64,000 nt of DNA from an uncultured delta proteobacterium (GCA_963736855.1 CAVTQK010000009.1:448001-512000), one strand, 5' to 3'. Positions 45,211 through 64,000 are shown, counted from the stretch's first letter. The notes: a model not told the origin generated them from the letters alone. Program-made: numbers and translations.

Positions 45211-45393
45211 GAAAAGGTTTCCTTTCTCGTTTTCATCTGTTTTTCTTATGAACTGTTTCTCTTTTCTTCTATCTGAGGTCAAAACCGATGTCAAATCGGG
45301 GTGTTTAAGGCGATAGGGCTTTCGAAACTTTTTGCCATAAATCATTGAGTTACGAAACTCGGAAAAGAATCCTTGAGATGAATGAGTTAACGA

Positions 45394-46263: not shown

Positions 46264-46285
46264 GCGACTTTCTTTTCGACCCGGG

Positions 46286-47275: not shown

Positions 47276-47306
47276 ATGGCTTGTGCTCCTTAGCAAAGAA
47301 ACATCG

Positions 47307-48239: not shown

Positions 48240-48243
48240 CCCT

Positions 48244-49479
48244 TTATCCGGTAAATCCTTCGGCCGCCTTTCGAGTGAAGTACTCGGCAACGAACGCGAC
48301 GGTCCACGGTGGGGCATCATCCAGGCTCCCTTCCATGATCCGGGTCATTAATTCGGTCAAATGAAAAGAATGCTGCCATGTGGATAGGCGGTTCCTGAAC
48401 ATGGCGGCCCCTTTTTGAGGCTCTTCTTCAAATTGTTCCATAATCATGGCGATCTCATTTTTGAACCCGTCTGCCCCGTAGTACTTGAGGAATCCGTGCC
48501 AAGCCTCTACCACGCTTTCTTTATTCGACAGGGGGGTGGATAGAGCTTCGAGTTTCTTCAAGGCTCTTTGCAGATTTTCTTTCTTAAGCCGGGTAAGCCG
48601 GTCGGGTCCGATTTCATACGGGACAATCCGGATGGCGTCGACACCGTCTTTTGTGATACCGACTTTTACCAAATAGCCGATTTTTCGGTAGAGGAGCTCC
48701 GTAGGCTGGAAAAAGATGAAATTGCCCAGGCTGAAGCAGATAGGGACCCCGTTATGGATCTTTACTCCCTGGGGTACATGGGGGTGATGGCCGATGACGA
48801 GATCGGCCCCGCATTCGGCAATGCGCGTTAGAGCGTCCACCAGATAGGGTGGCGGAAACGGAATGTATTCCACTCCCCCGTGGCAGACAACTATGACGAT
48901 GTGCACACGGGATCGAAGCTCTTTAACAAGGTTGATGATCCGTTCGATCTCCCAACCCAGCACTCCGGGTTTATCAGGTTCGGCCGCGGTGAGGTCTTCT
49001 CCTTCACCGAAGCTGAATACACCGATCGTGATTCCATTCACGGTTATCTTTGCAGGCTTTTCTGCCTCGGCAAGTGACAAGCCCGCGCCGGTGAAATGGA
49101 TGCCGTTTGAAGAAAGAAGATCCCGGGTTTGGATGAAACCTTCGATGCCGCAGTCAAAAATATGATTGTTCCCCAAGGTGGCGATTTCAAAAGGAACCGC
49201 TGTAAGACCGACGATGTGTGCCGGAAGCCCTTTCAGAACAGAGCCACTTTTCCACACCGGTATTCCTTCATCCACCAGCGGACATTCCAGGTTGACGATC
49301 CTCAGATGGCTTTCCCGGAACACCTCCAGTAGATCCCCGTATACATACTCCGGTTTTTCGAGGATCGTGTCGCTGAAATCTCGAATAGGCGCCCAATCAC
49401 CGGCAATAACGATTTCGGCTTCCGGTTTTTTCCCCTGTGGGCGCTTCCAAGTTCCATTTTCCCAATCAACCGGGTTCAT
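48244..49479 (-). CDS. CapA/PgsA-family metallophosphatase-fold protein
   Basis: AGD, VNLECP, LGNNHIFD, HGGVEY, GHHPHVPQG and SLGNFIF. Confidence 0.9.
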   Translation of the reverse strand: MNPVDWENGTWKRPQGKKPEAEIVIAGDWAPIRDFSDTILEKPEYVYGDLLEVFRESHLRIVNLECPLVDEGIPVWKSGSVLKGLPAHIVGLTAVPFEIATLGNNHIFDCGIEGFIQTRDLLSSNGIHFTGAGLSLAEAEKPAKITVNGITIGVFSFGEGEDLTAAEPDKPGVLGWEIERIINLVKELRSRVHIVIVVCHGGVEYIPFPPPYLVDALTRIAECGADLVIGHHPHVPQGVKIHNGVPICFSLGNFIFFQPTELLYRKIGYLVKVGITKDGVDAIRIVPYEIGPDRLTRLKKENLQRALKKLEALSTPLSNKESVVEAWHGFLKYYGADGFKNEIAMIMEQFEEEPQKGAAMFRNRLSTWQHSFHLTELMTRIMEGSLDDAPPWTVAFVAEYFTRKAAEGFTG

Positions 49480-49511
49480 TTTTTATTTTTCATTCGACAC
49501 TGTTTTAACTC

Positions 49512-50699
49512 TTATTCGATGTAAATTCTGGCAACCCGGGATGTGAGCGACGATACTATCTCGTAATTGATGGTGCCTAAAAGGCCGGCAATTTCATCGG
49601 CTGTGACCGATTCGTTCCCCTGGCGACCCAAAATGACCACCTCATCTTTAAGCATCACACCAGGAATACGCCCAACATCGATCAGGGTTAAGTCCATGCA
49701 TATCCGGCCGATGATGGGGGCACGGACTCCTTTTACCAGCATGTGCCCCCGGGAGGATAGAGCCCGATTCAAACCATCGGCATAGCCGATGGGCACGGTG
49801 GCGATCCGCGTGGGTCTTGGGGTGCGATAGGTGCTTCCGTAGCTCACCGCAAATCCTGGTCCTACCTGCTTGACTTGAATGACCCGGGATTTAAGTGTCA
49901 TGACCGGTTTGATATCGATCAGGCTTTTATCCACTGCGTTCGAAGGCCAGAGTCCATATAGGGATATTCCCGGCCGAACCAGATCCAGATGAGTTTCGGG
50001 CATTTCAATGGTCGCCGCACTGTTGGCCGCATGGCGGAATCGAACCTGAAACCCCGCCTTTTTAAGTGTTTCCAAAAGCTCCACGAATAGGGCGAATTGC
50101 CTACGGGCATCCGTTTTGTCTTTGGCATCCGCATCGGCAAAATGGGTGTATATGCCTTCCACCTCGATATGCGGCATCGAGGCAATTCTCAACACGTCAT
50201 ACACTGTTCCGGACCGGATCGGGCCTTCAGCCGCATCCGCGTTCAAGGCATCTGAGAGAATCCCCAGGCGTCCCATGCCCGTATCGATTTTGATGTGGAC
50301 TATAAGAGTTTTCCCGATGGAAAGAGCCTTTTCGGACAGCTGCCGGGCCGATGTCACGGAGTTGATAGAAGCCCGGATGTCGTTTTCAATCATGTAGGCT
50401 GCATAGGTCGGAAGGCTGTGTCCAAACAAAAGAATGGGTGCAGCAATTCCGGCTTTCCTTAAGCAAACGGCCTCATCGAACCGGGCAACCGCCAAAAACT
50501 TTGCTCCGCATTTCAAAGCGGTCCGAGCGACCTGGACAGCACCGTGACCATAACCGTCCGCCTTGACCACCGCCATGATCTCGGCCCTGGAAGAGGTAAC
50601 CCGCCGCAGTTCCCGATAATTGTGAGCCAGGGCCTTCAGATCGATCTCCGCCCAGGTCATTGAGGGATAACCGGCCTGAGAATCAGCGGCCTGTGACAT
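49512..50699 (-). CDS. alr: Alanine racemase
   Basis: AVVKADGYGHG, KIDTGMGRLG, RPGISLYG, VSYG and GRICMD. Confidence 0.96.
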   Translation of the reverse strand: MSQAADSQAGYPSMTWAEIDLKALAHNYRELRRVTSSRAEIMAVVKADGYGHGAVQVARTALKCGAKFLAVARFDEAVCLRKAGIAAPILLFGHSLPTYAAYMIENDIRASINSVTSARQLSEKALSIGKTLIVHIKIDTGMGRLGILSDALNADAAEGPIRSGTVYDVLRIASMPHIEVEGIYTHFADADAKDKTDARRQFALFVELLETLKKAGFQVRFRHAANSAATIEMPETHLDLVRPGISLYGLWPSNAVDKSLIDIKPVMTLKSRVIQVKQVGPGFAVSYGSTYRTPRPTRIATVPIGYADGLNRALSSRGHMLVKGVRAPIIGRICMDLTLIDVGRIPGVMLKDEVVILGRQGNESVTADEIAGLLGTINYEIVSSLTSRVARIYIE

Positions 50700-50700
50700 G

Positions 50701-51546
50701 TCAAACCTTTCCCTGCCCGTAAGCCGTGGTGTATTCTTTAAACAGGTGCATGACTTTTCGCGTGGTGTTGCCGGGTTTTCCATTCCCGATATGGAACTGG
50801 TCGATCTGGATGACGGGTACGATTTCCTTGTTGGAAGCCGTGATGAAGACCTCTTCCATCGTTACTATCTCGCTGATATCAACATCTCTGAGTTCGACGT
50901 CGAAATGATTTTTCACCAATTCCAAAACCACGCTTCGGGTGACACCGGGCAGTATGTCCGACTTCGGGGTAACCAACCTGCCTTTTTTGAAAAAGAAAAT
51001 ATTCGTGGTGGTACCTTCGAGCATGCGGCGATTCCGATCCGCATAGATGGATTCAATAGCCCCCTTCCGATGGGCCTCTTGAAGGGCCCAGACCGCGGTC
51101 AGGTAGTTGGTGCTCTTGGCTTTCGGGATGAAGCGTTCGATGTCCAGGGTGATGATCTTGACCCCGTCCGTGTACCACCAATCCGGGAGGTTCAACCTGG
51201 GCGTAACCATCACGATCAGTTTGCCGTTTCCCTCCGGAGTAACTCCGTCCGAACTGACGCCGCCGGTATAAACAATCCGGATGTTCGATTCCCCTTGGTG
51301 GGCATTGCGGCGGATCGTTTCTTCCACGATGCCGCAGATGTTATCCCGGGTATGATTCAGTTTGAGACCGATATTTTCGGCCGAGTTCTCCAGTCGCTGC
51401 ACATGCGTTTTAAGATAAAATGGACGTTTGTTGTAGGTAATTAAAAAATCGAACACACCGAAGCCTCTCAGTACCGATAAATCTTTTACCGAGATGACGG
51501 CTTGGTCTTCGGTAACAAACTCTTTATCGATGTAATAAATATCCAT
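50701..51546 (-). CDS. PLP fold-type IV aminotransferase (D-amino-acid aminotransferase-like)
   Basis: RGFGVFD, HVQRL, AKSTNY, EGTTTNIF, LPGVTR and EEVFITAS. Confidence 0.88.
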   Translation of the reverse strand: MDIYYIDKEFVTEDQAVISVKDLSVLRGFGVFDFLITYNKRPFYLKTHVQRLENSAENIGLKLNHTRDNICGIVEETIRRNAHQGESNIRIVYTGGVSSDGVTPEGNGKLIVMVTPRLNLPDWWYTDGVKIITLDIERFIPKAKSTNYLTAVWALQEAHRKGAIESIYADRNRRMLEGTTTNIFFFKKGRLVTPKSDILPGVTRSVVLELVKNHFDVELRDVDISEIVTMEEVFITASNKEIVPVIQIDQFHIGNGKPGNTTRKVMHLFKEYTTAYGQGKV

Positions 51547-51616
51547 TGCGATCCCCTCGAGTGTCTATTCTGTTCGGCTTCAGGCTTGTCTTTTCTCTTG
51601 AATCCTCGGATATAAA

Positions 51617-51654
51617 GCACCCCGACCAAGCCGGAAGCCCAACGGTCGGGGTGC
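51617..51654 (-). terminator. Probable terminator after the HisC-like gene
   Basis: 11-bp stem GCACCCCGACC/GGTCGGGGTGC followed by TTTAT on the minus strand. Confidence 0.6.
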
Positions 51655-51684
51655 GCTATCTTTCGATTTCAGCTTTTCCTGAGA

Positions 51685-52776
51685 TTACCTAAAGTAAGCC
51701 CGGATGAATTTCAGAAAGCGCTCGTTTTCTTCATCCTTTCCCGGTGTCACGCGGAAATAGCCGCTCTTGCCGTGAATCTCGCCGATCTTTTTAAGGAAAA
51801 TCTTTTCCATGTCCATAGCGGCCGCAAGGATTTCATCTGTGGTCTTTCCGGTCATGGTGGCGTCAATGAGCATATAATTGCCATGGGCCGAATACGGTTT
51901 GAGGCCGGCTTTCTTGAGTTCCTCGGTAAAGATGGCCATCCACTTGTTGTTGTGCGCCACCTTTGCCTTGACTTCTTCAGGGTTGTCGAGGATCGCCTCC
52001 GCTGCTGCTGCGGACATCACGCTGACGTTCCAAGGCAGGAACATGCGCTTGAAGGCGGCGATCATCTCTATAGTTCCCAGCACAAACCCAAAGCGGATGC
52101 CTGCAAACCCGTAAGCCTTGGAAAAAGTCACCGACAGAAAAACCTGGGGATATTTCTTGATCAATGGAGCTTTCGACGGATGGTCAGGGTTATAATCCAG
52201 GTAGGCTTCATCCACGCAAAGCGGCACACCGGTTTCGCAGAATCGGATCAGATCCTTGTCATCGATAAACACCCCGGTGGGATTGTTTGGATTGATAATC
52301 AGAATCAGCTTCGTGCGTGTATTGATGGCGTTGAGCATGCCTTCGACATCGTATTGAAGATCCCCTTTTCGAACCGAAATCTGGACCACTTTACCGCCGC
52401 ACAGTTCGGCGCGGGGCGGAAAGAGCTCGAAGGTGGGAGTGGAACAGATGAATTCATCTCCGGGTTTTAGAAAAATCCGCATCATCGCATCGATGATTTC
52501 CGATGAACCGTTGCAGAGCGCCACGTTTTCAGGACCCAGGCCGTACATTTTTCCGATCTTGGTCCGTAGACGGAGAAAGCTGTCAGGATACCAGTTTCCG
52601 TGTTTCATGGAGTTGGCGACAGCACTGATGACCTTGTCCGATGGGGGTATCGGGTTTTCATTGAGCATCAGCCGGCCTTTTTCTGGGCTGGCCCAAGCCT
52701 TATCTAGAATGCCGACGTTGTATTCCCGTGACGTGAGCAGCCACGGCACAAACCAGTCTTTGAGTTCTTTTGCCAT
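51685..52776 (-). CDS. HisC/CobD-like PLP aminotransferase (class II)
   Basis: LNENP, YPD, NPNNPTG, VDEAY and TFSKAYGFAGIRFG. Confidence 0.9.
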   Translation of the reverse strand: MAKELKDWFVPWLLTSREYNVGILDKAWASPEKGRLMLNENPIPPSDKVISAVANSMKHGNWYPDSFLRLRTKIGKMYGLGPENVALCNGSSEIIDAMMRIFLKPGDEFICSTPTFELFPPRAELCGGKVVQISVRKGDLQYDVEGMLNAINTRTKLILIINPNNPTGVFIDDKDLIRFCETGVPLCVDEAYLDYNPDHPSKAPLIKKYPQVFLSVTFSKAYGFAGIRFGFVLGTIEMIAAFKRMFLPWNVSVMSAAAAEAILDNPEEVKAKVAHNNKWMAIFTEELKKAGLKPYSAHGNYMLIDATMTGKTTDEILAAAMDMEKIFLKKIGEIHGKSGYFRVTPGKDEENERFLKFIRAYFR

Positions 52777-52833
52777 TTTTTCCTCCTGATACCATATTTA
52801 GTGTTCAAAAACCTGCGGGAAACGGTCGATCGT

Positions 52834-53946
52834 TTACAGCACCGCATCCAACGGTTTGTATTCCAATCCAAAAGCCTCGGCCACGCCTTTATAAGTCACC
52901 TTACCGTCGATGATGTTCACCCCTTTGGCCAAATCGGGGTTTTGCCTTACCGCGACCTTGTATCCTTTTCCCGCCAGTTCCAGCGCATAGGGCAGGGTGG
53001 CGTTGGTCAACGCAATGGTGGAGGTCATGGAAACCGCACCAGGCATGTTGGCCACACAATAGTGGATAATGCCGTCCACTTCATAGATCGGATCATCGTG
53101 GGTGGTTGGCTTTGCAGTTTCGACACACCCTCCCTGATCAATGGCCACATCCACGACAACCGAGCCTTTTTTCATCAAGCCCAGCATCTCCCGGGTAACC
53201 AGCTTGGGTGCCATGGCGCCTGGAATCAACACGGCGCCGACCACCAGATCGGCCTCCGGCAGAAAATGCCGAATGGTGGCGGGATTGGACATGACCGGAA
53301 AACAATTTTTAGGCATCACATCGGAAAGGTACCGCAAGCGTTCGAGATTGTTGTCCAACAGATAAACCTTGGCCCCCATCCCGCAAGCCACCTTTGCGGC
53401 GTTGGTCCCAACGACGCCGCCTCCGATGACCAGGACAGTCCCTGAATTCACCCCTGGTACGCCGCTCAGCAGAATCCCTTTACCGCCATACGTTTTTTCC
53501 AGGTACTTGGCCCCTTCCTGAATTGCCATCCGACCGGCCACCTCACTCATCGGCGTCAAGAGCGGCAATGATCCGTTGGGCTTTTCCACAGTCTCATAAG
53601 CGATCGCGACACATTTGCTGGCCATGATGGCGCGTGTCAATTCTTCCGATGCCGCAAAATGAAAATAGGTAAAGAGGACCTGCCCCTTCCGGATCAGAGC
53701 GTATTCAACCGGCAAGGGTTCCTTGACCTTCATAACCATTTCGCAGGAACTGTAGATTTTTTTCGGGGTTTTCGCAATGGCGGCTCCGGCCCTGACATAG
53801 TCACCATCCGAGAAACCGGAACCACTCCCCGCCAGGGTTTCGATGAGGACCTTGTGCCCGCGGGTTGCCATTTGTTCCGCACCGGCAGGCGTCATGGCTA
53901 CCCGGTTTTCTTTTCTCTTTATCTCTTTCAAAACACCTATTTGCAT
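52834..53946 (-). CDS. ald: Alanine dehydrogenase
   Basis: [35 protein letters not shown] and VANMPGAV. Confidence 0.96.
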
Positions 53947-53969
53947 GAGATGACCTCCTTCTTTGAATA

Positions 53970-55190
53970 CTATTTTTTCGAAGCGAAATTACAGGCCGAA
54001 TCCAAGCACTTTCCTGCAAAGGTTACCATCTCCTGTGTAGCCTTCGAAAACTGATCGGCCGTTCGCTGTAAGGCCGAATGTGTATTGTATTCATCACGGG
54101 TATATCCGTCTTCGGCATAGGCCCTTTCGAAATAGGGAACCCTCATGAGCTTGTCCATCACGTTCTTGGGAATATTCGCATGGATCCGATCCGGCTCGTA
54201 AACGATATTTTTTTCCTCCTCAAAATTCATGACCTGATCGATGAACGACGGCGGACAGGTGACAACGATGGATGCGCCGGTTTTTTCTTCCAAGTGCCAG
54301 ATCCGGGTGGCACCGTTTACTTTGGGCCCCAAACGCAGCGAACAGGAAAGCATCTTGCTGGGCATCCGATTTTTTTCTAGGAATTGATAGGCCTTCTTGA
54401 AAATCGCCAGTTCCGCCAACCGAATATCTCCATCGGTCAGTTCAATCCCCTTTTCCTTTGCAAAATCCCTCAAGCCGCCAAGATCGCCGTATCGGGATTC
54501 CATGTGGGTGATGACTGAACGCCATTTACTCAGATCCACGTTGTTTGCCTTGGCCCTTTTCAATCCTTTCTGAACGGTGCGGGCGCAATCCACCAGCTGC
54601 GGCAGAATAAACGTGAGGGTGTTGTTGGTGGAGATCCCCCGTGCGGTCAGCTCTTCGATGATATCGTATCCTTGCTTGGAGCCCGGCACTTTGATCATGA
54701 CATTCGGATTGATCGCGGCCAACTCGAGGGCCTGCCTGAGCATGGCGTCCTTGTCGAACACGCTTCTTGGATCCACCTGACCGGAAAGGAATCCCTCTTT
54801 GTATCCGGATTTTTCAAACACAGACAGATACATGTCCGATCCGCGCTTCACCACTTTCTTGTATAACCTCCAAAACAGGGACTCTTTTTCAATACCCGGA
54901 TTTTGGGCGATAATTTCTTTGGCAACGCCTTCCCAGTAGGGCGGATCGTCCTGAATCGCCTGCAAGGACAAGGGCGGATTGGTGGTCACCCCGCGGAACA
55001 GCTGTTTTTCCGGTGCTTTTTCGTCATACATGCGGCCAAACTGGCGTTGTAAGATATTTCGGTTCTCAGGCGCTGCCTTGTCGAGCATCTTATGGCACCA
55101 GTTTTTAAAAATCACCGGGGAGGAATCCCACCAGATCTCCATTCCAGGGCTGACTTCCACCAACTTTTCAATCAGGTTTTTCTCTTCCAT
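53970..55190 (-). CDS. Transaldolase-family protein with atypical active site
   Basis: WWDS, GVTTNPP, QVDP, Schiff-base Lys in MIKVP and NNTL. Confidence 0.88.
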   Translation of the reverse strand: MEEKNLIEKLVEVSPGMEIWWDSSPVIFKNWCHKMLDKAAPENRNILQRQFGRMYDEKAPEKQLFRGVTTNPPLSLQAIQDDPPYWEGVAKEIIAQNPGIEKESLFWRLYKKVVKRGSDMYLSVFEKSGYKEGFLSGQVDPRSVFDKDAMLRQALELAAINPNVMIKVPGSKQGYDIIEELTARGISTNNTLTFILPQLVDCARTVQKGLKRAKANNVDLSKWRSVITHMESRYGDLGGLRDFAKEKGIELTDGDIRLAELAIFKKAYQFLEKNRMPSKMLSCSLRLGPKVNGATRIWHLEEKTGASIVVTCPPSFIDQVMNFEEEKNIVYEPDRIHANIPKNVMDKLMRVPYFERAYAEDGYTRDEYNTHSALQRTADQFSKATQEMVTFAGKCLDSACNFASKK

Positions 55191-55269
55191 TCACATCCTC
55201 CTTAAAATAATGATTGATCAATACAGTTTGGCTCAATGGGAAGCTTCTCCGGTCTCAGCTTCGGATTGT

Positions 55270-56022
55270 TCATGGGGTCAAATGATATTGTCCCAATTCA
55301 ACTTCAAAAACGCATTTGTCCCCTCTGAAATAACTATAAAGCACTTCAACAGGCATGTTTCGATCATTATAGGTTACACTTTCCGAATACAAAGCAGCGC
55401 TGTTTTGCTTGAGTCCAAGCTGTTGGGCAATTTTCCTGTTCAGGTTGACCGCTCGGATCGTTTGTGCGCTTCGGGCCAGAATGACACCAAATTCCTTGGT
55501 AAAGATCTCGTACATGGAGCCGGTCAGATCCATATCCAGGATTCCCTCGAAAAGATCCGCCGGCACATAGGTCTCCTCATAAATCAATGGGTGGTCGTCT
55601 CCGGAGCGCACCCTTCGGATGGCAATGATTTTGCTGTTCGGGCTCACCGCCAAATTCTTTGCCACATATTGGGTCGGCACCTCGTAGCCTTTTTCAAGAA
55701 GCCGTGTCTTTTCGCGGATGCCGGACTGTTGAAGCTCCAGGCCCAAACTCGAAATCCGGTTTAGCTTGTGTCTCACTGGAAGTGATTCGACAGATGAAAC
55801 GAACGTGCCGATCCCTTTGACTTTTTGCAGCAACCCGCCGGCGGTCAATTCTCCGATGGCCTGTCTCAGCGTATTGCGGTTGACCCGGCACATCCGTGAC
55901 AATTCGATTTCAGAGGGAAGCTTTTCGCCGATCTTGTATCTTCCCTGCTGAATCGCATCTTTAAGCCATGCGCTGATCTGAAGATATTTGGGTATCGGGT
56001 TGTTGGGATCAACAATAATCAC
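55270..56022 (-). CDS. GntR-family regulator, HutC/UTRA subfamily
   Basis: LPSEIEL...VNRNTLRQA and GIGTFV, with a C-terminal UTRA region ending SYFRGD. Confidence 0.93.
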   Translation of the reverse strand: MIIVDPNNPIPKYLQISAWLKDAIQQGRYKIGEKLPSEIELSRMCRVNRNTLRQAIGELTAGGLLQKVKGIGTFVSSVESLPVRHKLNRISSLGLELQQSGIREKTRLLEKGYEVPTQYVAKNLAVSPNSKIIAIRRVRSGDDHPLIYEETYVPADLFEGILDMDLTGSMYEIFTKEFGVILARSAQTIRAVNLNRKIAQQLGLKQNSAALYSESVTYNDRNMPVEVLYSYFRGDKCVFEVELGQYHLTP

Positions 56023-56113
56023 GGTTTATTCACCCTTTTTTGCTGAAAGAAACCTAGTCGGGAGGCCGTTACAAATATTGAAATCTGTTGACATAGGGAA
56101 CAGCTTGTTCCGA

Positions 56114-58006
56114 CTACCTTTTACTCATGAACCTGATTTTATCCCTTATGTTATCCGGGCCGAGTCCTTGATACAGGATCTGCTCATTCAGACCGCCACG
56201 CCCTTCTTTGGTGGTCCCCATGTAGGCATAGGCGCCTTTGAATCCTTTTTCCAAAAGCCAGGTGCCGAATCGAACGCCCAGGCCCGATTTTGCGTTCTGG
56301 GTCTCCACCACCAGGACAAATTTTGCTCCTGCCAATCGCCTCATCATTTCTTCATCAATGACATTCAGCGTCGGCTTGTTAATGAGTCCCACTCGAATAT
56401 CATCGGCCTTCAGGCGTTCCACCGCATCGAGGCAGCGGTAGAGCATCTCACCGTAAGAAACGACAAACCCTCCTTCGCCTTCCCGGATCACTTCATCCTT
56501 TCCCGGGACAAACCGATAGTTTTTATCAAAAAATGTTTCCCCATGGGTGTTCAGGATAAACGGAGTCGCAGACCGCGTTGAAAAGACAAACCGCAAGCCC
56601 TCGTCATGAAAAACCTCTTGAAGGACAGCCCGCATCTGGTTGGAATCGGCCGGAAAGTACAATCGGGTGGCGTCCTTTTCCGGCAAACCGTTGTCGGCAA
56701 AAAAAATGTTGATCCCGAAATGGCAGGTGTTGTCCGCCATATCATCCACGCCGGCGTGGGAAAAATGGGCCAGCACATTGGCCCGGTTCAGACGAGCCAT
56801 GGTGACTTCCGAAACCACCATTTCCAGAAACGCGGAAAAGGTTCCAAAGATTCCCTGTCTTCCTTTTTCCGAACCGAATCCGGAGGCCACCGAAAAATTA
56901 CTCCGTTCCATGATGCCGCCCAGGATATAAATTTCGGGAAACGATTTTCGGATATGATGGAGCCCGCAGGATCCCTCCAGATCCGAATCCACGACGAGCA
57001 CCCTGGATTTGCGGTCCGGCATCGTTTTAAGAATATCGCAAAGGATCTTTCCGAAATCGTCCCGGTTTTTCGCTTGTTCCCGGGTACTCCCAAGATAGAC
57101 GGTTGCAGACTTTGGTTTGGCTGTCGTTTCCAGAACCCGAACGGCTTCCTGACGGCCCTTTTCTTTCAGATAGGAAACGGCAAGATCTACAGAAATCACA
57201 TCATGGGCCTTGGGGGAGCCCTCGATTCCCGGAATGCCTGCGGCCATTTTTCGCTGATTGATCATCGCCACCGGCCCATCGGTGGTCAGTGCCCGATGTA
57301 TCCTTTGATATAAAGCCGGCAGATCTTCGCCCAAACCGGTATCCACCTTCACTCCATGGCCCTTCAACGTTTTTTCGACGCTGAATCCTTTCAAATAGTC
57401 GCTGGGATGTCCGGCAATGGTCACATCATTGTCATCGATCAGGAGTTTGATGTTGAGATGCCGGGCCACGGCATACCGGGCCGCTTCCGCATCTCCGCCT
57501 TCCTGCTGGGAGCCGTCACTGCCGAACAGTACCACTATCTTGCCCGGATGGGCTGAAGCTACGCCGTTGACATAGCCCCACAAGTGACCCAGGCGTCCCG
57601 AGCTGAAAAAGACGCCCTGTTTGTCGTCCCTTTCGGGGTGCCCATAAAGGCCGCTGCCAAACTCCCTATAATGCAGCAGCGACTCGATCGGTTTGTACCC
57701 GTTCAGGACTGCCATAAGGTATTGAATGGCAACCCGGTGACCCGCCTCATCAAAGTACACAGGATAAATCGTATCGCTGCCCTTCATGAAACCATCCACA
57801 ATCAGAAGCTCGGGTACGATATCATATGCCCCTCCTGTATGGCCGCCCAGACCCTTGGTGTTGGCATAGGCGGTAAAAAAGACAATACTGTCGCGCACCA
57901 ACGCTATGTTTTGCCGCAACTGCACCTCGTTTTCATCGGTGAGTTGTCTTTGTGAGAAGGAAAACTTCAGGGGTTTAAACGCGCTAAAATCGATTGGAAA
58001 ATTCAT
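56114..58006 (-). CDS. Divergent single-chain transketolase-family ThDP enzyme
   Basis: GGHTGG, GHPE, ThDP motif GSDGSQQEG...DDN, DSDLEGSCG and GIMER. Start placed at ATG 58006 behind GGGAGG. Confidence 0.87.
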   Translation of the reverse strand: MNFPIDFSAFKPLKFSFSQRQLTDENEVQLRQNIALVRDSIVFFTAYANTKGLGGHTGGAYDIVPELLIVDGFMKGSDTIYPVYFDEAGHRVAIQYLMAVLNGYKPIESLLHYREFGSGLYGHPERDDKQGVFFSSGRLGHLWGYVNGVASAHPGKIVVLFGSDGSQQEGGDAEAARYAVARHLNIKLLIDDNDVTIAGHPSDYLKGFSVEKTLKGHGVKVDTGLGEDLPALYQRIHRALTTDGPVAMINQRKMAAGIPGIEGSPKAHDVISVDLAVSYLKEKGRQEAVRVLETTAKPKSATVYLGSTREQAKNRDDFGKILCDILKTMPDRKSRVLVVDSDLEGSCGLHHIRKSFPEIYILGGIMERSNFSVASGFGSEKGRQGIFGTFSAFLEMVVSEVTMARLNRANVLAHFSHAGVDDMADNTCHFGINIFFADNGLPEKDATRLYFPADSNQMRAVLQEVFHDEGLRFVFSTRSATPFILNTHGETFFDKNYRFVPGKDEVIREGEGGFVVSYGEMLYRCLDAVERLKADDIRVGLINKPTLNVIDEEMMRRLAGAKFVLVVETQNAKSGLGVRFGTWLLEKGFKGAYAYMGTTKEGRGGLNEQILYQGLGPDNIRDKIRFMSKR

Positions 58007-58140
58007 GGACTGCCTCCCATGGATCACATAGTCTTTCGCCCATCAGCCGCATACCGTCGACCGACCATCTTCTATCGAACCCCGCTGTCGCATCTTTCGA
58101 TGCGATTGTTTCCGGATGTTCAAGCCCCTCTGTCTAATGT

Positions 58141-58156
58141 TATAGATGTATATACA
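58141..58156. promoter_or_regulatory. Putative HutC-type GntR operator (site 1)
   Basis: TATAGATGTATATACA, containing the palindrome TGTATATACA. An identical inverted copy lies at 60489-60504. Confidence 0.75.
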
Positions 58157-58161
58157 TGTTA

Positions 58162-58191
58162 AATATATCCGGGAACCTGTTTTCATGTCAA
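58162..58191 (-). promoter_or_regulatory. Sigma70-type promoter for the transketolase operon
   Basis: Minus-strand TTGACA-18 nt-TATATT, immediately upstream of operator site 1. Confidence 0.6.
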
Positions 58192-58488
58192 GAAAAATTT
58201 GTGAGCTTAACCCGACCTTAACAGAGATATAAGACACCCTATTGAAAGATTGATATTTTTAATCCAGATGCTATGGTGGTTATATGTCCCATAAAACCAG
58301 CATAGACGCTCCCGGAGCCATTCATTTCCCAATCATCGGCGGCAAATGGGTGCGAAGCCGGATGCAGGATGATTTCATTCATAAATAGCGGCAGAACGAA
58401 AATATGAACGCATCTGTCGATATGTCATGAGCATCCCTGGAACTTTTACGCCCTAAGAGTTTACAAAGTTTTTCAATAGGAGGGCCGG

Positions 58489-59172
58489 ATGTTAAAGCTG
58501 GATGTCGGATGCGGTCAGAACAAAAAGAACGGTTTTTTGGGTATAGATATCGCCAGCTCACAAGGGGTTGATTTTGTTCTTGATATTACCAATGAGAAGC
58601 TTCCGCTTCAAGACAATTCAGTGGATGAAGTATTTTCAAATCACTTCTTTGAGCATATTGATTCACCCAAAGAGGCCCTTGAAGAACTGATCCGCGTATC
58701 CGTGGAAGGAGCGACCTTCGAAATCTGGACTCCCTATCTGAAATCCGACGAGGCCTTTCTTCTCGGTCACCGTCATTTCTATAACGAGACCATCTGGAGG
58801 CATATATGCATCGAATACCCTTACTTCTGGCTGAAAGATGTGGAAGCAACCCTAAGGCTGGATAAGTTATGTTATGTGCTCAAACCGGATGCGGTCGCCG
58901 AGCTGGAACAGCTCAAAATTCCCCTCTTTTTTGCCCTGAAACACATGTTCAATATTGCCAGTGAAATGGGAGCCATCATGACCGTCATCAAAGGAAAGGA
59001 TGTAAAAGGGATTCCCTGCGCCGAACCCGAGCGGTTCGTGTCTCTTTCGAGGCAAGGACCGTTTGAAAAACTGACTGATGCCGGAATTCCCTCAACGAAT
59101 ATGGCAACCTTAACAAAGGTTCGCCGGAAAATATCCTTATTATCCCAAAAGCTGTTTTCCTCCCGTTCCTAA
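58489..59172 (+). CDS. SAM-dependent methyltransferase (type 11-like)
   Basis: KLDVGCG, IDI and LPLQDNSVDEVFSNHFFEH, with RBS AGGAGG. Confidence 0.85.
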   Translation: MLKLDVGCGQNKKNGFLGIDIASSQGVDFVLDITNEKLPLQDNSVDEVFSNHFFEHIDSPKEALEELIRVSVEGATFEIWTPYLKSDEAFLLGHRHFYNETIWRHICIEYPYFWLKDVEATLRLDKLCYVLKPDAVAELEQLKIPLFFALKHMFNIASEMGAIMTVIKGKDVKGIPCAEPERFVSLSRQGPFEKLTDAGIPSTNMATLTKVRRKISLLSQKLFSSRS

Positions 59173-59341
59173 TTTCGTCGATCCAAAAAAGCCATTTTAA
59201 TGCACGCAAGGATTCCGGACCTTGCCATCAGGTCGCTTGGAATAAAGCAAGGATGCGGCCGCAGTCCATAAATGAACCTTCAACAGCGCCGCTGCCGCCC
59301 CTGATCCGTCAAGGATCTGCAGTTTCGCCCCGGTCGACAGC

Positions 59342-60295
59342 TTAAACGGCGACACCGCATTCTTCCCGGATGAACTCCAGATTCTTGACGGCATTCTCAT
59401 ACTTGACCTTGCCGTAGGCATAATAATCGAAGGTAATCTTGGAGACATTCAGTTGAATCAAGCTCCATAAAAACCAGTAGATGTCTGGAAACGGCTTAAA
59501 AAGATCAATGAAAAACATGGTCTTTTCAAACTCATGGTCTCCGCAGTAGGTTGCAACAATCTCTTTTTCGTACTGCCGAGGAACGAGGATTTCCTGGAAC
59601 ATATCGGCGATATCGTAATATTTGGGCGCCATCCCCGCGTATTCCCAGTCGATGATATACATGGGGGATGCATACTTTTCCAATGCGTCTTCATTGATGA
59701 GGATGAAATTGTCCGCCAGCAAGTCGTTGTGGCAGGGGGTATATTCGGACTCGGGAATGTTGATGATGCTTGATAGTTTGATGAGACGATCGATGGTTTC
59801 CGCGATATCGAACTCCGGATAATTGACATCCAGCCGCCTGAGGATGGCGGACATCTTCATGACCTCGATAAGGGGATTGAAAATCTTTTTCAATTTTGCC
59901 CCGCTGGTATGGATCTTTCGAATCGGCTCAACGATTTTGGGATGCAGTGACGTATCCAGAAAATGGTGGTTCTTTAACACAATAGAATCCCCGATGAATT
60001 CGACGATCGTCACTCCCAGTTCGGGCATGAACTTGATCAGTTTTGAACATACGCCGATTTTTGAAATTTCACGAACCGCCTGCGCCTCGTATTCCCGGTT
60101 GATGAAGAGATCGGTTTTGTCCCCATAGATCCGAACCGTATAATCGCCTTTTTCGGATTGAATCCGATACAGCTTGTTGGTGATCCCGCCTTTCAACTGG
60201 GTAATCCGGACATCAAGACCTTTCCATTCAGGCAAAAGGTCATAACAGATTTGCGGGGTCAAATCCCGGTCCAGTAAAGATATTGCACTGTGCAT
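59342..60295 (-). CDS. Choline/ethanolamine kinase-family phosphotransferase
   Basis: GGITN, RIYG, Brenner motif CHNDLLADNF and choline-kinase motif IIDWEYAG. Confidence 0.9.
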   Translation of the reverse strand: MHSAISLLDRDLTPQICYDLLPEWKGLDVRITQLKGGITNKLYRIQSEKGDYTVRIYGDKTDLFINREYEAQAVREISKIGVCSKLIKFMPELGVTIVEFIGDSIVLKNHHFLDTSLHPKIVEPIRKIHTSGAKLKKIFNPLIEVMKMSAILRRLDVNYPEFDIAETIDRLIKLSSIINIPESEYTPCHNDLLADNFILINEDALEKYASPMYIIDWEYAGMAPKYYDIADMFQEILVPRQYEKEIVATYCGDHEFEKTMFFIDLFKPFPDIYWFLWSLIQLNVSKITFDYYAYGKVKYENAVKNLEFIREECGVAV

Positions 60296-60488
60296 GTCCA
60301 TTCCCCCTTCAAATAAAGCGGTTGGCGATTTACATAAAAATCTTGACAAAAGTAAACCTTACACGTTAGGCAGAAAATCAATTTGAGTCCTCTGATTTGA
60401 TGAAGTTTAGTGACGGAATGCGTTCACGACGCCGATGGATCGATAGAGTCCTTTTTGACTGCTGAAGACTATTATTTTTCAGTTATGC

Positions 60489-60504
60489 TGTATATACATC
60501 TATA
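60489..60504. promoter_or_regulatory. Putative HutC-type GntR operator (site 2) in the kinase/TRAP divergent region
   Basis: TGTATATACATCTATA, the exact reverse complement of 58141-58156. Confidence 0.75.
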
Positions 60505-60585
60505 TCAATAAGCCCAATTCATGTCAAGGGGAAACGGCGGGACGAACTTGATGCTGACCCAACACCCAAAAAGGAGGCTGGTTCA

Positions 60586-61635
60586 ATGAAACGACGCGAT
60601 TTTATGAAAAAGGCAGGGATAGGCGCCGCCGCAGTGGCGGCCACAGCGGTCAATGCACCTTACGTGATCGCGCAAAAGAAAACGACTATAAAATGGCGGA
60701 TACAAACCTATGCCGGGCCCGCTCTGGCCGCACATGTTATTAAGCCGTCGATCGATGCATTCAACAAGGCGGCAAACGGAGAAATGGTGATCGAGCTGTA
60801 CAACGCGGACCAGTTGGTGCCCCAGGGGGAGCTCTTCAGGGCCGTACAGAAAGGGACCATGGACGCATGCCAGAGCGACGATGATTCCATTGCGGCCCCG
60901 GTCGATGTGGCGGTGTTTGCGGCATATTTTCCCTTTGCATCGCGCTATTCGCTGGACGTTCCCACCCTGTTTCACTGGTATGGACTGGATAAGATCTGGC
61001 AGGAAGCCTATGCCGGCATAAAAGGTGTCACCTGGCTGGGTTCGGGGTCCTGGGATCCCTGCAACTTTGCCACCGTCAAGCCCATCAACCATCTGTCTGA
61101 TCTCAAAGGGTTGAGAATGTATATGTTCCCCACCGGAGGCAGGTTCATGCAGCAATTCGGCGTGGTGCCCATGTCGCTCAAATACGAAGATGTTCAAATG
61201 GCCATCCAGACCGGTGAGCTCGACGGCGTCGCCTGGTCCGGCATCACCGAAGATTACACGGTGGGCTGGGCGGATGTCACCAAGTACTACCTGACCAATC
61301 CCATATCCGGCGCCTGGTCAGGATCCTACTTTGTGAACACCGCCGCGTGGGAAAAAGTTCCGGAACATCTGAAAGCGTTGTTCAAACTGTCCATGGACAG
61401 CTCCCATTACTACCGTCTGCATTGGTACTGGTGGGGTGAAGCGCATTATCGTGTCAAAGGCGGTAAACTGAAACTGACGACGATCCCGGCCAACGAGTGG
61501 AAAACCGTAGAAGATGCGGCCCTCAAATTCTGGGATGAGATCGCCGCCAAGAGCCCCAGGAACGCCAAGGTGGTAAAAATCCTCAAGGAATATGCCCAGA
61601 TCATGAAGGATGCCGGCCCTCCGTATCGATATTAA
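60586..61635 (+). CDS. dctP: TRAP transporter substrate-binding protein (DctP family) with Tat signal
   Basis: RRDFMK Tat motif, ADQLVP, DLKGLR and QTGELDG, followed by dctQM. Confidence 0.92.
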   Translation: MKRRDFMKKAGIGAAAVAATAVNAPYVIAQKKTTIKWRIQTYAGPALAAHVIKPSIDAFNKAANGEMVIELYNADQLVPQGELFRAVQKGTMDACQSDDDSIAAPVDVAVFAAYFPFASRYSLDVPTLFHWYGLDKIWQEAYAGIKGVTWLGSGSWDPCNFATVKPINHLSDLKGLRMYMFPTGGRFMQQFGVVPMSLKYEDVQMAIQTGELDGVAWSGITEDYTVGWADVTKYYLTNPISGAWSGSYFVNTAAWEKVPEHLKALFKLSMDSSHYYRLHWYWWGEAHYRVKGGKLKLTTIPANEWKTVEDAALKFWDEIAAKSPRNAKVVKILKEYAQIMKDAGPPYRY

Positions 61636-61665
61636 TCCTTAAAAAGCTTTCTGTCAGGCCTTAAA

Positions 61666-61707
61666 TCACCTTCCCGGGTCAGAGTGAAAACCGGTCCGGG
61701 AAGGTGA
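61666..61707 (+). other. Intercistronic hairpin between dctP and dctQ
   Basis: 12-bp perfect stem TCACCTTCCCGG/CCGGGAAGGTGA. Confidence 0.7.
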
Positions 61708-61734
61708 ACCTTTTAAAAGTCATAAGGAATCGAT

Positions 61735-62247
61735 ATGCCGAAAATCATTCAGAACTTCGTACGATACACGGAAGCCACCAGCAAAGCCGTCGGCCGTTTT
61801 TCCCAGTACTTGGTTTTCGCCATGATGGGCATTCTGCTGTTCGAGTCCCTATCTCGAACCTTCTTTAACCGCCCGCACATCTGGGTTGTGGAAACCTCTC
61901 AATTTCTCATGGCCGCCTATTACCTTTTGGGCGGCGCTTATTCCATGATCCTGGAAGGGCATGTTCGCATGGACCTCTTCTACGGCCGCTTGTCAAAGAA
62001 ACGGCAGGGGCTGACGGATGTGATCACCGGCCCTTTTATGATCTTTTACCTGGTCTTTCTTCTGATCGGCGGCATTTCCAGCATCGATTACGCTATAAGA
62101 TACGGGCAAAAAAATTATACGCCCTGGGCGCCGCCTTTGACTCCGATTAAAATCATCATGGCCATCGGAATCCTGCTGATGCTGCTCCAAGCCATCGTAT
62201 TCTTTATCAAAGACATCGCTAAAGCCAGAGGAAAGGAATCCTCATGA
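61735..62247 (+). CDS. dctQ: TRAP transporter small permease
   Basis: 4 TM segments, W..E and GHVRMDLFY. Confidence 0.92.
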   Translation: MPKIIQNFVRYTEATSKAVGRFSQYLVFAMMGILLFESLSRTFFNRPHIWVVETSQFLMAAYYLLGGAYSMILEGHVRMDLFYGRLSKKRQGLTDVITGPFMIFYLVFLLIGGISSIDYAIRYGQKNYTPWAPPLTPIKIIMAIGILLMLLQAIVFFIKDIAKARGKESS

Positions 62248-63570
62248 GTCATGAACTGATCGCCCTTCTGATCTTTTCCTCGATGTTGCTCATGTTGCTG
62301 ACGGGGCAACGGATCTTTGCCGCCATCGGCGGAGTGGCAACCTTGTTCGCCCTCTGGTTATGGGGGGAAGGCGGAGCGGAGATGCCCTATCATGCAAGCT
62401 TCATTCTCCTGAACTGGTATCCGCTTCTTACTTTGCCCTTGTTTATCTATATGGGCTACATGTTTGCAGAATCGGGAATCGCCGATGACCTCTACCGCAT
62501 GTTCCATGTCTGGATGGGTCCCGTCAACGGGGGTTTGGCCATCGGAACCACCGGCTTGATGGTGGCGGTAGCCGCCATGAACGGGTTGAGTGTCGCCGGT
62601 ATGGCCATCGGCGCCAGTATCGCCATGCCGGAAATGCTGAAGCGAAAATACGACAAGGTCATGGTCACCGGCGTCATCCAGGCCGGAAGTTCTTTGGGCA
62701 TCATGATCCCTCCCAGCGTGGTCCTGGTCCTTTACGGCATGATCGCCCGACAGCCGGTGGGCCATCTCTGGATGGCCGGGGTTTTTCCCGGGCTGTTGTT
62801 GGCGGGGCTGTTCGTTCTCTATATTCTCATTCGATGCTGGATCCAACCCCAAATGGGCCCGGCCCTGAGCTTGGAAGAGCGTCAGCAGATCACCTGGGCC
62901 GAAAGATTCCGACTCCTTCGGGCGGGGATCATTCCCCTCTTGATTATTTTTTCCATGACCGGACTGTTTTTGATGGGGATCACCAGTCTCGTGGAGTGCT
63001 CCGCAGTAGGGGCAGTGGTGACAACCGTCGCAGCCTGGATGAAAAAGCGGCTGAATCGACGGGTCATGGAAGACACTCCTCCGAAACACCCTGAGCGTCA
63101 GTTGCATGTTCATGTGGGTGATTCTTGCGGCGATGTGCTTCGGGGCTGTCTTCGACGGCCTGGGGGCCGTTCATGCCATCGAGAATCTTTTCATCAAGAA
63201 ATGGGAACTCAGCCCATGGGGGATCCTGATCATGATGCAGGTTACCTATATCCTGATGGGTATGTTCCTGGATGATACCGCCATGCTCATCATCGTGGCG
63301 CCCCTGTATATCCCTCTGGTCATCAAGCTGGGATTCAACCCCATCTGGTATGGTGTACTCTACACCATCACCTGCCAGATCGCTTATATGACGCCGCCTT
63401 TCGGTTACAACCTGTTTCTGATGAAAGCCATGGCACCTCCGGAGGTGACGCTGGCAGACATCTACCGTTCCATTGTCCCCTTTGTTCTGGTGATGATGGT
63501 GGGTCTGGCGATTGTCATCCTCTTTCCCCCGATCGCCCTGTGGCTTCCCAATTTATACTTTGGAAAATGA
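62244..63570 (+). pseudogene. dctM: TRAP large permease DctM with a +1 frameshift at ~63078 (pseudogene or sequencing error)
   Basis: LGIMIPPS in the first frame and TPPFGYNLF in the second. Deleting one C at 63078 gives continuous MEDTLRNTLSVSCMFMW (441 aa). Confidence 0.85.
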
Positions 63571-63575
63571 CAACC

Positions 63576-64000
63576 ATGAAAATGCCGGATATTCGAATCC
63601 AAAAGATCCTCTTTGCCACCGACTTATCGGAAAGCTCCGTGCACGCCTTTGCCTATGCGGTGAGTCTTGCCAATATCTTTGGAGCCGGGATGACGATCCT
63701 TCATGTGATGGCCGAATTCCCCGGAGAAAAATTCATCCTGAACATGATCCAAACCGACACGTGGAAGGAAATCAAAAAACGGCATTATTCCGAAGCCCGG
63801 GATGACCTGATCCTGAAAAAAAGAGACCATGTCGCCATCAAGGAGGTTCTGGAGGCCTTTTCCGAAGCGGTTAAAAACGGAGACCCCAATCACGATTTCG
63901 TCACCGACGAAATCATCATTAAAAGCGGGCCTCCTGCCGAAACGATCGTCGAAACGGCAAAAAAGCGGAAGTGCGATCTGGTCGTCGTGGGAACCCACGG
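63576..64000 (+). CDS. Universal stress protein (3' truncated by window edge)
   Basis: Manual translation: KILFATDLS...ILHV...GPPAETIVETAKKRKCDLVVVGTH. Confidence 0.9.
   Translation, partial: MKMPDIRIQKILFATDLSESSVHAFAYAVSLANIFGAGMTILHVMAEFPGEKFILNMIQTDTWKEIKKRHYSEARDDLILKKRDHVAIKEVLEAFSEAVKNGDPNHDFVTDEIIIKSGPPAETIVETAKKRKCDLVVVGTH

Follow-up and report, generated by a model that had tools for sequence, protein, structure and literature searches.

The window analysed here is a 64,000-nucleotide stretch of DNA from an uncultured delta proteobacterium, and the locus of interest fills its final part (Table 1). Profile searches recovered every gene that an earlier, sequence-only reading had named there: a TRAP importer with a universal stress protein, a choline/ethanolamine kinase, a HisC-like aminotransferase, an alanine dehydrogenase (Ald), a transaldolase-fold enzyme (TAL), a transketolase-family enzyme and a GntR regulator. 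No Rfam match was found within 51000-64000. The dctM gene is split: near 63077 it has one base more than five related loci and the contig sets of four sequencing runs, a frameshift that is most likely an assembly error. The locus itself was found in contigs of four DNA/unknown-type sequencing runs, a result that concerns presence only.

Table 1. Features of the locus, in coordinates of the window
Feature	Position	Strand	Basis
Possible terminator, GC-rich hairpin 3' of hisC-like gene	51618..51650	-	read in sequence; weak U-tract
HisC-family PLP aminotransferase paralogue	51685..52776	-	PF00155; TIGR01141 260.5 bits
Alanine dehydrogenase (Ald)	52834..53946	-	TIGR00518 506.2 bits
Divergent 406-aa transaldolase-fold enzyme (TAL), TAL_FSA, Gln/Met subfamily	53970..55190	-	PF00923
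GntR/HutC-family (UTRA) regulator	55270..56022	-	PF00392 + PF07702
Divergent single-chain transketolase-family enzyme	56114..58006	-	three TK Pfam domains
Operator copy 1	58141..58156	+	exact TATAGATGTATATACA; profile
SAM-methyltransferase gene	58489..59172	+	PF08241
Choline/ethanolamine kinase	59342..60295	-	PF01633 109.7 bits
Operator copy 2	60489..60504	-	exact TATAGATGTATATACA; profile
TRAP solute-binding protein DctP, Tat signal, EtoX/Csal_0678 clade	60586..61635	+	PDB 4UAB; TIGR01409
DctQ	61735..62247	+	PF04290
DctM, split in two frames	62244..63570	+	PF06808 on both halves
Universal stress protein (USP), ends 64094, past window end	63576..64000	+	PF00582

The cluster is interrupted by a SAM-methyltransferase gene that was absent from the earlier gene list. 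This gene was found in 0 of 80 TAL loci and in 2 of 80 HisC (transaminase) loci, and it is probably a lineage-specific insertion that lies outside the route discussed below. A downstream DAAT-alr-capA-racemase-ATP-grasp block was also considered as part of the route and judged to be separate; it is present in 14-16 of 80 loci, and the hairpin lies between.

The duplicated operator-like sites proposed from the sequence turned out to be real. Both copies match the 16-bp TATAGATGTATATACA exactly, and the whole 3.9 Mb genome contains just three matches with up to two mismatches. A profile built from the sites of relatives scores the two copies at 31.8 and 31.6 bits and the next distinct genomic site at 16.5 bits, which leaves these two as the sole strong sites. 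Copy 1 closely follows, in the direction of transcription, a sigma70-type promoter on the minus strand (-35 at 58191, -10 ending 58162) that is predicted to serve a tkt-gntR-tal-ald-hisC unit, and copy 2, within the divergent kinase/dctP intergenic region, overlaps a promoter-like TTGACA-17-TATAGA on the minus strand, as read from the sequence. The operator recurs in 45 of 80 related loci and precedes tal by about 50 nt in those from Syntrophales; a GntR gene is found in 57 of 80 TAL loci. This conservation establishes, on comparative grounds, that the gene set is co-regulated through the operator.

The import module points to the substrate. By its best PDB match (4UAB, Csal_0678, E 1.1e-138; next match 1.4e-19), DctP is orthologous to Csal_0678/EtoX, a TRAP protein that binds ethanolamine, and it is predicted to bind the same ligand. 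EtoX has a Kd of 7.9 uM for ethanolamine and does not bind phosphoethanolamine (PMC10132767). The neighboring kinase scores 109.7 bits against PF01633 (cut-off 29), has LicA 4R77 and 3DXQ as best PDB matches, and carries the CHNDL..DNF and IDWEY motifs in the alignment to LicA; its start codon was set from the RBS and from 317-aa homologues. Five genomes of the order set described below have EtoX without the kinase. In three of the four neighborhoods viewed (all but G079), EtoX adjoins a component of another ethanolamine pathway, namely EutB in G063 and a glutamylase resembling glutamine synthetase in G153 and G039; the fourth, G135, ended at a contig edge. In loci with an AepX-like ABC importer the kinase is mostly missing (present in 1/13 loci and 1/5 genomes), a pattern that uptake of an already phosphorylated substrate would explain. 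Frequent neighbors in related loci are N-demethylases (DMGDH-like with ETF, and MttB), and pairs of an APH-type kinase with MttB occur in L028, L044 and L048. The kinase/TRAP module is one entry module among several.

The HisC-like enzyme falls below the cut-offs of two family models, with 260.5 bits for TIGR01141 (HisC; cut-off 276.55) and 152.4 bits for TIGR01140 (CobD; cut-off 290.55); two other HisC paralogues in the genome pass TIGR01141, with 344.7 and 292.5 bits. It has the PLP lysine motif and the Tyr/Arg residues that characterise HisC-like enzymes of class Ib, in which these residues have a phosphate-binding role; Y19, Y63, K220, R228 and R342 are invariant among seven members of the HisC-like clade and the two canonical paralogues. 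The paralogue is proposed to be a phosphoethanolamine:pyruvate transaminase. Its clade had no match in plasmids at 1e-40. Ald is well above its cut-off (TIGR00518, 506.2 bits against 391.85), and an Ald gene is found in 49 of 80 TAL loci and 67 of 80 HisC loci.

The TAL model (pLDDT 96.4) has the classical fold, with TM scores of 0.69-0.70 to the C. glutamicum and Neisseria transaldolases, and the protein retains K167 (the Schiff-base Lys), D22, N71, R233, S284 and R286. At the two positions with acid/base roles, transaldolases carry Glu/Phe and fructose-6-phosphate aldolases (FSA) carry Gln/Tyr. The catalytic Glu (E96 in E. coli, E93 in Neisseria) is replaced by Q138, a Gln found in 90 of 91 aligned sequences, and the position of the FSA Tyr is occupied by M230 (Met in 89 of 91), so that the enzyme does not qualify as an FSA even though the Gln is present. 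With Gln at one site and Met at the other, it has neither established acid/base residue. H229 and E231 are conserved in 38/40 and 40/40 members of the close clade. The protein is under the cut-off of all seven NCBIfam models that it matched, and a protein atlas search returned only "transaldolase family" clusters. TAL is the sole PF00923 protein in the window's genome and in 12 of 21 carrier genomes, so its retention could in part be due to housekeeping, and TAL may double as a housekeeping enzyme; 17 of 140 genomes outside the TAL-clade carriers have no TAL-family gene at all. The transketolase-family enzyme exceeds the cut-offs of three TK Pfam domains and scores only 47.3 bits against TIGR00232 (cut-off 682), well short of a canonical bacterial transketolase.

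The strongest indication of the product comes from loci in which TAL is missing. Here the HisC-like transaminase adjoins a class II aldolase (FBA-II) and an orthologue of CbbY. The L089 protein matches PDB 4UAV (AtCbbY) with E 2e-62 and 4UAR with E 1e-38, the next match being 2e-15, which identifies it as an orthologue of AtCbbY/RsCbbY. CbbY was not found in the window's own genome and is present in just 6 of 161 order genomes, all of them HisC-positive; CbbY and the class II aldolase adjoin HisC in five of the six and are unlinked in G031. Seven genomes have HisC without a TAL match, and these comprise five with the CbbY orthologue, one with a TAL fragment at a contig end (G102) and one cut by its contig (G074). 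Among 80 HisC-anchored metagenome loci, many of the 32 with neither partner being short, 41 have only TAL, 6 only FBA/CbbY and one both. A quick tree was made from 55 HisC rows, comprising 45 of the 99 linked to TAL and every one of the 10 distinct sequences linked to FBA, with identical ones dropped. On it the partner label changes seven times, and at least five of these changes are forced by well-supported branches. The comparison of loci demonstrates that TAL and FBA-II plus CbbY are interchangeable in gene content. CbbY is a specific phosphatase that converts XuBP to Xu5P, and XuBP is formed enzymatically from DHAP and glycolaldehyde phosphate (PMC10212915). FBA-II plus CbbY is thus predicted to yield xylulose-5-phosphate irreversibly from glycolaldehyde phosphate and DHAP. 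The alternative partner points to xylulose-5-phosphate made from glycolaldehyde phosphate as the product, and the XuBP specificity of CbbY argues for a C2 aldehyde phosphate as intermediate.

For the sequence-only reading, a lack of co-occurrence in other genomes would have counted as one refutation; the kinase, HisC-like enzyme, Ald, TAL, GntR, operator and DctP clade do travel together, in MAGs of Desulfobacterales, Syntrophales and Thermoleophilia. Among 161 genomes of the Desulfobacterales order, which are related and so not independent counts, the TAL clade is present in 21 (20 with the HisC-like clade), the kinase in 21 (20 with the HisC-like clade, the remaining one with TAL) and EtoX in 25, of which 20 are among the 28 core genomes; many loci in these counts are short MAG contigs. 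The HisC-TAL pairing is kept at about 50% identity in 6/6 phylum-level loci examined. The gene set holds up as a co-occurring unit, but its conserved core is narrower than had been supposed, consisting of the HisC-like enzyme, TAL (or FBA-II plus CbbY) and GntR, with Ald common. Transketolase is present and linked as claimed; however, it looks like a general enzyme that was co-recruited, with looser linkage than the other members (the divergent form in 27 of 80 TAL loci, the canonical form in 7, and the divergent form also in 6/22 genomes without the core), and the kinase and TRAP genes are one entry among several. The core is found in 28/161 order genomes and EutB in 14/161. Mutual exclusion of the two was looked for and not found, with EutB in 3/28 core genomes and 11/133 others.

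These comparisons support the ethanolamine interpretation, with the substrate indicated by the EtoX clade and the product by FBA-II plus CbbY. We consider it likely that this anaerobic sediment bacterium has a GntR/HutC regulon for B12- and oxygen-independent ethanolamine catabolism via glycolaldehyde phosphate to Xu5P and, as part of the same reading, that related genomes use this type of regulon also for phosphoethanolamine and N-methyl forms. We infer each reaction, the amino acceptor and the TAL donor from gene content. Ethanolamine imported by the EtoX-type TRAP system would be phosphorylated by the kinase, and the HisC paralogue would convert phosphoethanolamine and pyruvate to glycolaldehyde 2-phosphate and L-alanine, from which Ald would regenerate pyruvate with release of NH4+ and NADH. 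The divergent TAL would then build D-xylulose-5-phosphate from glycolaldehyde phosphate and a C3 unit taken from F6P or S7P, and transketolase with the remaining steps of the non-oxidative pentose-phosphate pathway would rebalance the products, for a net conversion of 3 C2-P to 2 triose-P + Pi. Phosphoketolase was ruled out as an outlet for Xu5P in the window's genome, where none was found; among enzymes that could regenerate F6P, the genome has no FBPase of PF00316 or PF01950.

The same entry could lead to a different fate of glycolaldehyde phosphate, either oxidation to phosphoglycolate and dephosphorylation or cleavage chemistry by a Gln/Met enzyme that is an aldolase/lyase, with TAL and TK being mainly housekeeping pentose-phosphate enzymes moved beside the operon. 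Such a fate would suit the phosphoglycolate-phosphatase-like HADs in L012, L014, L064, L087, L088 and L183, the loss of the catalytic Glu, and the frequency with which TAL is the only family member in its carriers compared with genomes that have none. It is nevertheless unlikely, given the operator upstream of tal in Syntrophales, the repeated replacement of TAL by the Xu5P-yielding pair, and the absence of aldehyde dehydrogenase from gene clusters seen in at least 3 of 80 loci. Somewhat less probable still is another amino alcohol as substrate (serinol, giving DHAP, or aminopropanol or an aminopolyol). The kinase and HisC families leave specificity unfixed, and a second Csal_0678 entry, PDB 4XF5, has an aminopropanol bound; but DHAP from serinol phosphate would need neither TAL nor FBA plus CbbY, CbbY specificity implies a C2 aldehyde phosphate, the EtoX clade is found elsewhere beside EutB or glutamylase, and the N-demethylase neighbors fit choline-series head groups.

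Two further schemes appear very improbable. Degradation of 2-aminoethylphosphonate (AEP) by PhnW-like transamination, Ald recycling and aldol capture of phosphonoacetaldehyde is suggested by an AepX/PhnS2-like ABC importer, found next to the core in 13 of 80 TAL loci and, in the window's genome, 7 kb downstream, and by FAD/GcvT demethylases that resemble those of N-methyl-AEP routes. However, the ABC proteins are under the TIGR03261/03262 cut-offs, the transaminase is HisC-type and not class V, the kinase and EtoX would make no sense for AEP, and without C-P cleavage a phosphono-pentulose could not be metabolised further. The least credible scheme runs the genes in reverse, from pentose phosphate to phosphoethanolamine for envelope or lipid modification. 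The TAL, transaminase and Ald reactions are indeed reversible, and an arn lipid-A modification operon lies upstream in about eight Syntrophales loci; but that linkage is limited to one lineage, CbbY hydrolysis is irreversible toward Xu5P, and importers, kinase and demethylases all point inward.

The proposed catabolic route to Xu5P differs from each known system that it resembles. The earlier reading noted no eutBC or microcompartment shell gene in the window; the genome, which is 100% complete, has no EutB match and a lone BMC gene on a different contig. Relative to the Eut ammonia-lyase (EutBC, with or without BMC), which shares the substrate, neither B12 nor acetaldehyde is predicted. The EtoXVW/Csal_0678 gamma-glutamylation system of Chromohalobacter and Phaeobacter (PMC10132767) is likewise B12-independent and has an orthologous ethanolamine-binding DctP with DctQM, whereas the window has the kinase, HisC paralogue, Ald and TAL in place of glutamylase and dehydrogenases; the locus has no ethanolamine glutamylase, and the best match in the genome is 28% identical. 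Routes that combine a kinase with a class III phospho-lyase (ETNPPL/AGXT2L1-type) also phosphorylate the amino alcohol ahead of a PLP step, but here that step would fall to an Ald-coupled PLP enzyme of HisC type (class I/II), and the phosphate would be kept as the carbon passes to sugar phosphates; the six class III (PF00202) matches in the genome all lie outside the locus. The PhnW-PhnX route for AEP also involves pyruvate-type transamination of a phosphorus-bearing C2 amine, and related loci have AepX-like importers, but the present route would involve an O-phosphate and not C-P, another transaminase class, and aldol capture and not hydrolysis. MthK/MthB choline demethylation in Eubacterium limosum (PMC12155760) also begins with kinase activation of a choline-type alcohol, but ends at dimethylaminoethanol, whereas the proposed route would consume the C2 skeleton. 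The CbbY described from Rhodobacter and Arabidopsis (PMC10212915) yields the same product in Rubisco damage repair, whereas its orthologue in these anaerobe loci stands beside genes for a class II aldolase and a transaminase. TAL shares with the PF00923 transaldolase/FSA family the fold, Schiff-base Lys, Asp/Asn and phosphate-binding residues, and departs from it in its Gln and Met and its length of about 400 aa. The route as a whole appears to be new, its parts belonging to known enzyme families; a full-text search, which excluded most subscription journals, found no description of the route or its intermediate.

A broader reading, towards which we lean with some reserve, is that a widespread, modular, B12-free route of anaerobes degrades the head groups of phospholipids (ethanolamine, phosphoethanolamine and N-methyl/choline forms) to glycolaldehyde phosphate and takes this on to Xu5P by two convergent solutions. 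One would be a Gln/Met TAL without a known acid/base catalyst, which displaced the housekeeping TAL in many carriers; the other would be a class II aldolase with CbbY, a Rubisco-repair phosphatase turned catabolic in non-photosynthetic cells. Testable functions are hereby assigned to three unannotated clades, namely the HisC paralogue, the Gln/Met transaldolase and the anaerobe CbbY. If the route operates as proposed, glycolaldehyde phosphate would be a physiological intermediate, and bacterial ethanolamine catabolism would have a fourth logic beside lyase, phospho-lyase and glutamylation, the only one of these that retains both carbons and the phosphate into sugar-phosphate metabolism and thus a natural carbon-conserving C2 entry. 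Since the core is more frequent than EutB in a major order of sulfate-reducing sediment bacteria, the route may matter for the anoxic turnover of membrane lipids.

Every gene named in the sequence-only reading was located in the window (see the table), and the genes form a real and conserved cluster that, judged by comparative evidence, probably encodes the route proposed there: ethanolamine is converted to phosphoethanolamine, then to glycolaldehyde phosphate and finally to xylulose-5-phosphate (Xu5P), without B12. The genome is 3.9 Mb and 100% complete, and the reported absence of eutB and of BMC shell genes from the window was borne out: EutB has no match in the whole genome, and the single BMC gene sits on a different contig. 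The closest relatives of the window transaldolase are encoded by MAGs labelled Desulfobacterales. The dctM gene is split, probably by an assembly error, since the window carries one extra base near 63077 that is absent from five related loci and four sequencing runs.

Features of the cluster, its operators and the flanking blocks
Feature	Position	Strand	Remarks
D-amino-acid transaminase-like, alanine racemase, CapA-like, Asp/Glu racemase-like, ATP-grasp and N-formylglutamate amidohydrolase genes	44428-51546	-	looks like a D-amino-acid/peptide module
tkt-gntR-tal-ald-hisC-like run	58006 to 51685	-	gene calls and domain matches
Divergent single-chain transketolase	56114-58006	-	GHTGGAYD motif; far below canonical cut-offs
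Operator copy, TATAGATGTATATACA	58141-58156		sigma70-like promoter
Kinase	60295-59342	-	separated from the tkt to hisC-like run by an inserted methyltransferase
Operator copy, TATAGATGTATATACA	60489-60504		sigma70-like promoter
dctPQM-usp	60586 to beyond 64000	divergent from kinase	
Downstream stretch in locus L083	64147-77523		beyond window end

The two halves of the cluster, tkt to hisC-like and kinase/dctPQM, most likely constitute one regulon, because they share an operator pair that is unique in the genome and recurrent in relatives. The 16-mer TATAGATGTATATACA occurs in exactly two copies, as the earlier reading of duplicated sites tying the units together had held. A profile derived from 31 distinct sites in relatives gives strong scores at only these two places genome-wide (31.8 and 31.6 bits; the next distinct site reaches 16.5). 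With at most one mismatch allowed, 45 of 80 transaldolase-anchored GTDB loci contain the 12-bp operator core (20 shuffles gave 0-4), usually a short distance upstream of tal, tkt, gntR or kinase/dctP, and the local GntR is inferred to be a repressor acting there. The profile also finds a site in four loci of the alternative type that carry a class II aldolase (FBA-II) and CbbY; none was found in L087, another such locus, at three unlinked kinase/dctP loci (L094, L099 and L100) or in the block downstream of the window.

The proposed transaminase is a HisC-family paralogue that falls below the HisC and CobD cut-offs and retains the PLP lysine and conserved Tyr/Arg residues; the genome also encodes two paralogues that do pass the HisC cut-off, one of them in a hisC-cmk-rpsA setting. 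The co-occurrence that the sequence-only reading had proposed as a check was found among the 161 Desulfobacterales genomes compared, where the HisC clade is carried by 20 of 21 genomes with the transaldolase (TAL) clade and by 20 of 21 with the kinase clade. At the 80 transaldolase loci, which as relatives are non-independent samples and whose short contigs make the counts minimum values, the hisC-like gene is present in 67 (32 of the 33 loci of at least 18 kb), GntR in 57, Ald in 49, the divergent transketolase in 27 (a canonical one in 7), the kinase in 18 and the ethanolamine-binding DctP clade, EtoX, in 11. Furthermore, the HisC-TAL pair is kept in all six more distant loci examined, with about 50% identity in five. 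The block at the far side of hisC-like accompanies the core in 14-16 of 80 loci. The divergent transketolase family occurs in 22 of the 161 genomes, 6 of which have no core, and is apparently the only transketolase in the window genome. As a separate observation, dxr lies divergently beside the core at L024, L026, L028, L044 and L048, with ispD at four of these five.

By the established stereochemistry of transaldolases, transfer of a C3 unit from F6P onto glycolaldehyde phosphate yields Xu5P. The strongest evidence in the analysis is that this module and an unrelated one with the same predicted product have repeatedly been swapped. The HisC clade lacks a TAL match in seven genomes of the order, five with a CbbY orthologue; of the other two, one has a TAL fragment at a contig end (G102) and one is cut off (G074). 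Only 6 of the 161 genomes have a CbbY orthologue, all of them with the HisC clade, and in five of the six a class II ketose-bisphosphate aldolase and CbbY share one unit with hisC-like and gntR; one CbbY genome, G104, also has TAL, elsewhere in the genome. Of 80 metagenome loci anchored on HisC, TAL alone is present in 41, FBA/CbbY alone in 6, both in 1 and neither in 32, and a quick tree shows seven changes of partner label, at least five of them forced. The best PDB matches of the CbbY proteins are AtCbbY and RsCbbY. CbbY is described as specifically converting xylulose-1,5-bisphosphate to Xu5P, the bisphosphate being made by aldol addition of DHAP to glycolaldehyde phosphate (PMC10212915). 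CbbY would set the catabolic direction of the route. The window genome has RPE, TPI and one DeoC/class I aldolase-family gene; F6P regeneration is only putative there, since no FBPase match (PF00316 or PF01950) and no phosphoketolase were found.

Transaldolases have a catalytic Glu, and FSA has a Tyr at another site. The window enzyme is modelled with a pLDDT of 96.4 in the transaldolase fold (TM 0.69-0.70 against the Corynebacterium and Neisseria enzymes) and has K167, D22, N71, R233, S284 and R286, with Gln138 at the catalytic-Glu position (90 of 91 aligned sequences) and Met230 at the FSA Tyr position (89 of 91), so that by its residues it fits neither the transaldolase nor the FSA definition in full. 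In 12 of its 21 carriers the clade supplies the sole PF00923 gene (17 of the 140 other genomes have none), which suggests that the Gln/Met enzyme can carry out the ordinary transaldolase reaction, in keeping with a transferase; the same count leaves room for the rival reading of it as a housekeeping enzyme. A homologue in Shinella (44%) sits among genes for a class II aldolase, a CbbY-like HAD (49%), gph and an acetoin-dehydrogenase-like complex, and this second setting is a further hint of glycolaldehyde phosphate. On the Shinella plasmid locus L081 (8982-20497), an acetoin-dehydrogenase-like E1/E2/E3 operon contains an outer-clade Gln/Met-type transaldolase together with gph, a TIM-barrel gene and tpi, and adjoins a class II aldolase, a CbbY-like HAD and glycerol genes; L086 has a similar TAL-E1-E2 order. 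Such operons are possibly another route yielding glycolaldehyde phosphate. Outer-clade transaldolases also occur as fusions, with a HAD domain in P0134 and with a xylose-isomerase-like barrel in P0237.

The window DctP matches Csal_0678 (PDB 4UAB) with an E value of 1e-138, against 1e-19 for the structure ranked second. This EtoX clade is reported to bind ethanolamine (Kd 7.9 uM) and not phosphoethanolamine, and to supply the gamma-glutamylation route of Chromohalobacter and Phaeobacter (PMC10132767). EtoX occurs in 25 of the 161 genomes, 20 of them among the 28 with the core. The neighbourhood comparison covered four of the five others (all but G079): G063 has EutB adjoining, G153 and G039 have a glutamine-synthetase-like gene, and in G135 the contig ends there. 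One importer clade therefore feeds three different downstream modules, and two of these are known ethanolamine routes. Core and EutB are not mutually exclusive (EutB in 3 of 28 genomes with the core vs 11 of 133 without). The kinase scores above the PF01633 cut-off, and its best alignments are to LicA and 3DXQ.

Entry modules vary between loci, and all are predicted to converge on phosphoethanolamine. Besides EtoX with kinase, there are an AepX-like ABC importer, usually without kinase (a kinase accompanies it at 1 of 13 loci and in 1 of 5 genomes), a Thermoleophilia form with APC permeases and a distant kinase, and an APH-type kinase with MttB; DMGDH-like flavoproteins occur at 20 loci and ETF at 16. 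The MttB (TMA-methyltransferase) gene after the core lies in two frames at the FBA/CbbY-type loci L087, L088, L090, L091, L092 and L183, which may reflect a pyrrolysine amber codon. A reported precedent is choline, on which a kinase acts before MttB demethylation (PMC12155760). The L083 stretch beyond the window holds two HAD genes, a split DMGDH-like FAD/GcvT gene, an AepX-like ABC importer, a NagD-type HAD, a glycerol-3-phosphate oxidase/dehydrogenase-like trio and a PiT transporter; no operator was found in it. These modules flank the core in other genomes, which suggests that it and the window locus form a larger glycerophospholipid-salvage island.

No description of the ethanolamine route was found in the literature searched, whose coverage mostly excluded subscription journals. 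Its parts are known families, and the route predicted for the window is, as a whole, no variant of the lyase (Eut), phospho-lyase or glutamylation pathways of ethanolamine.
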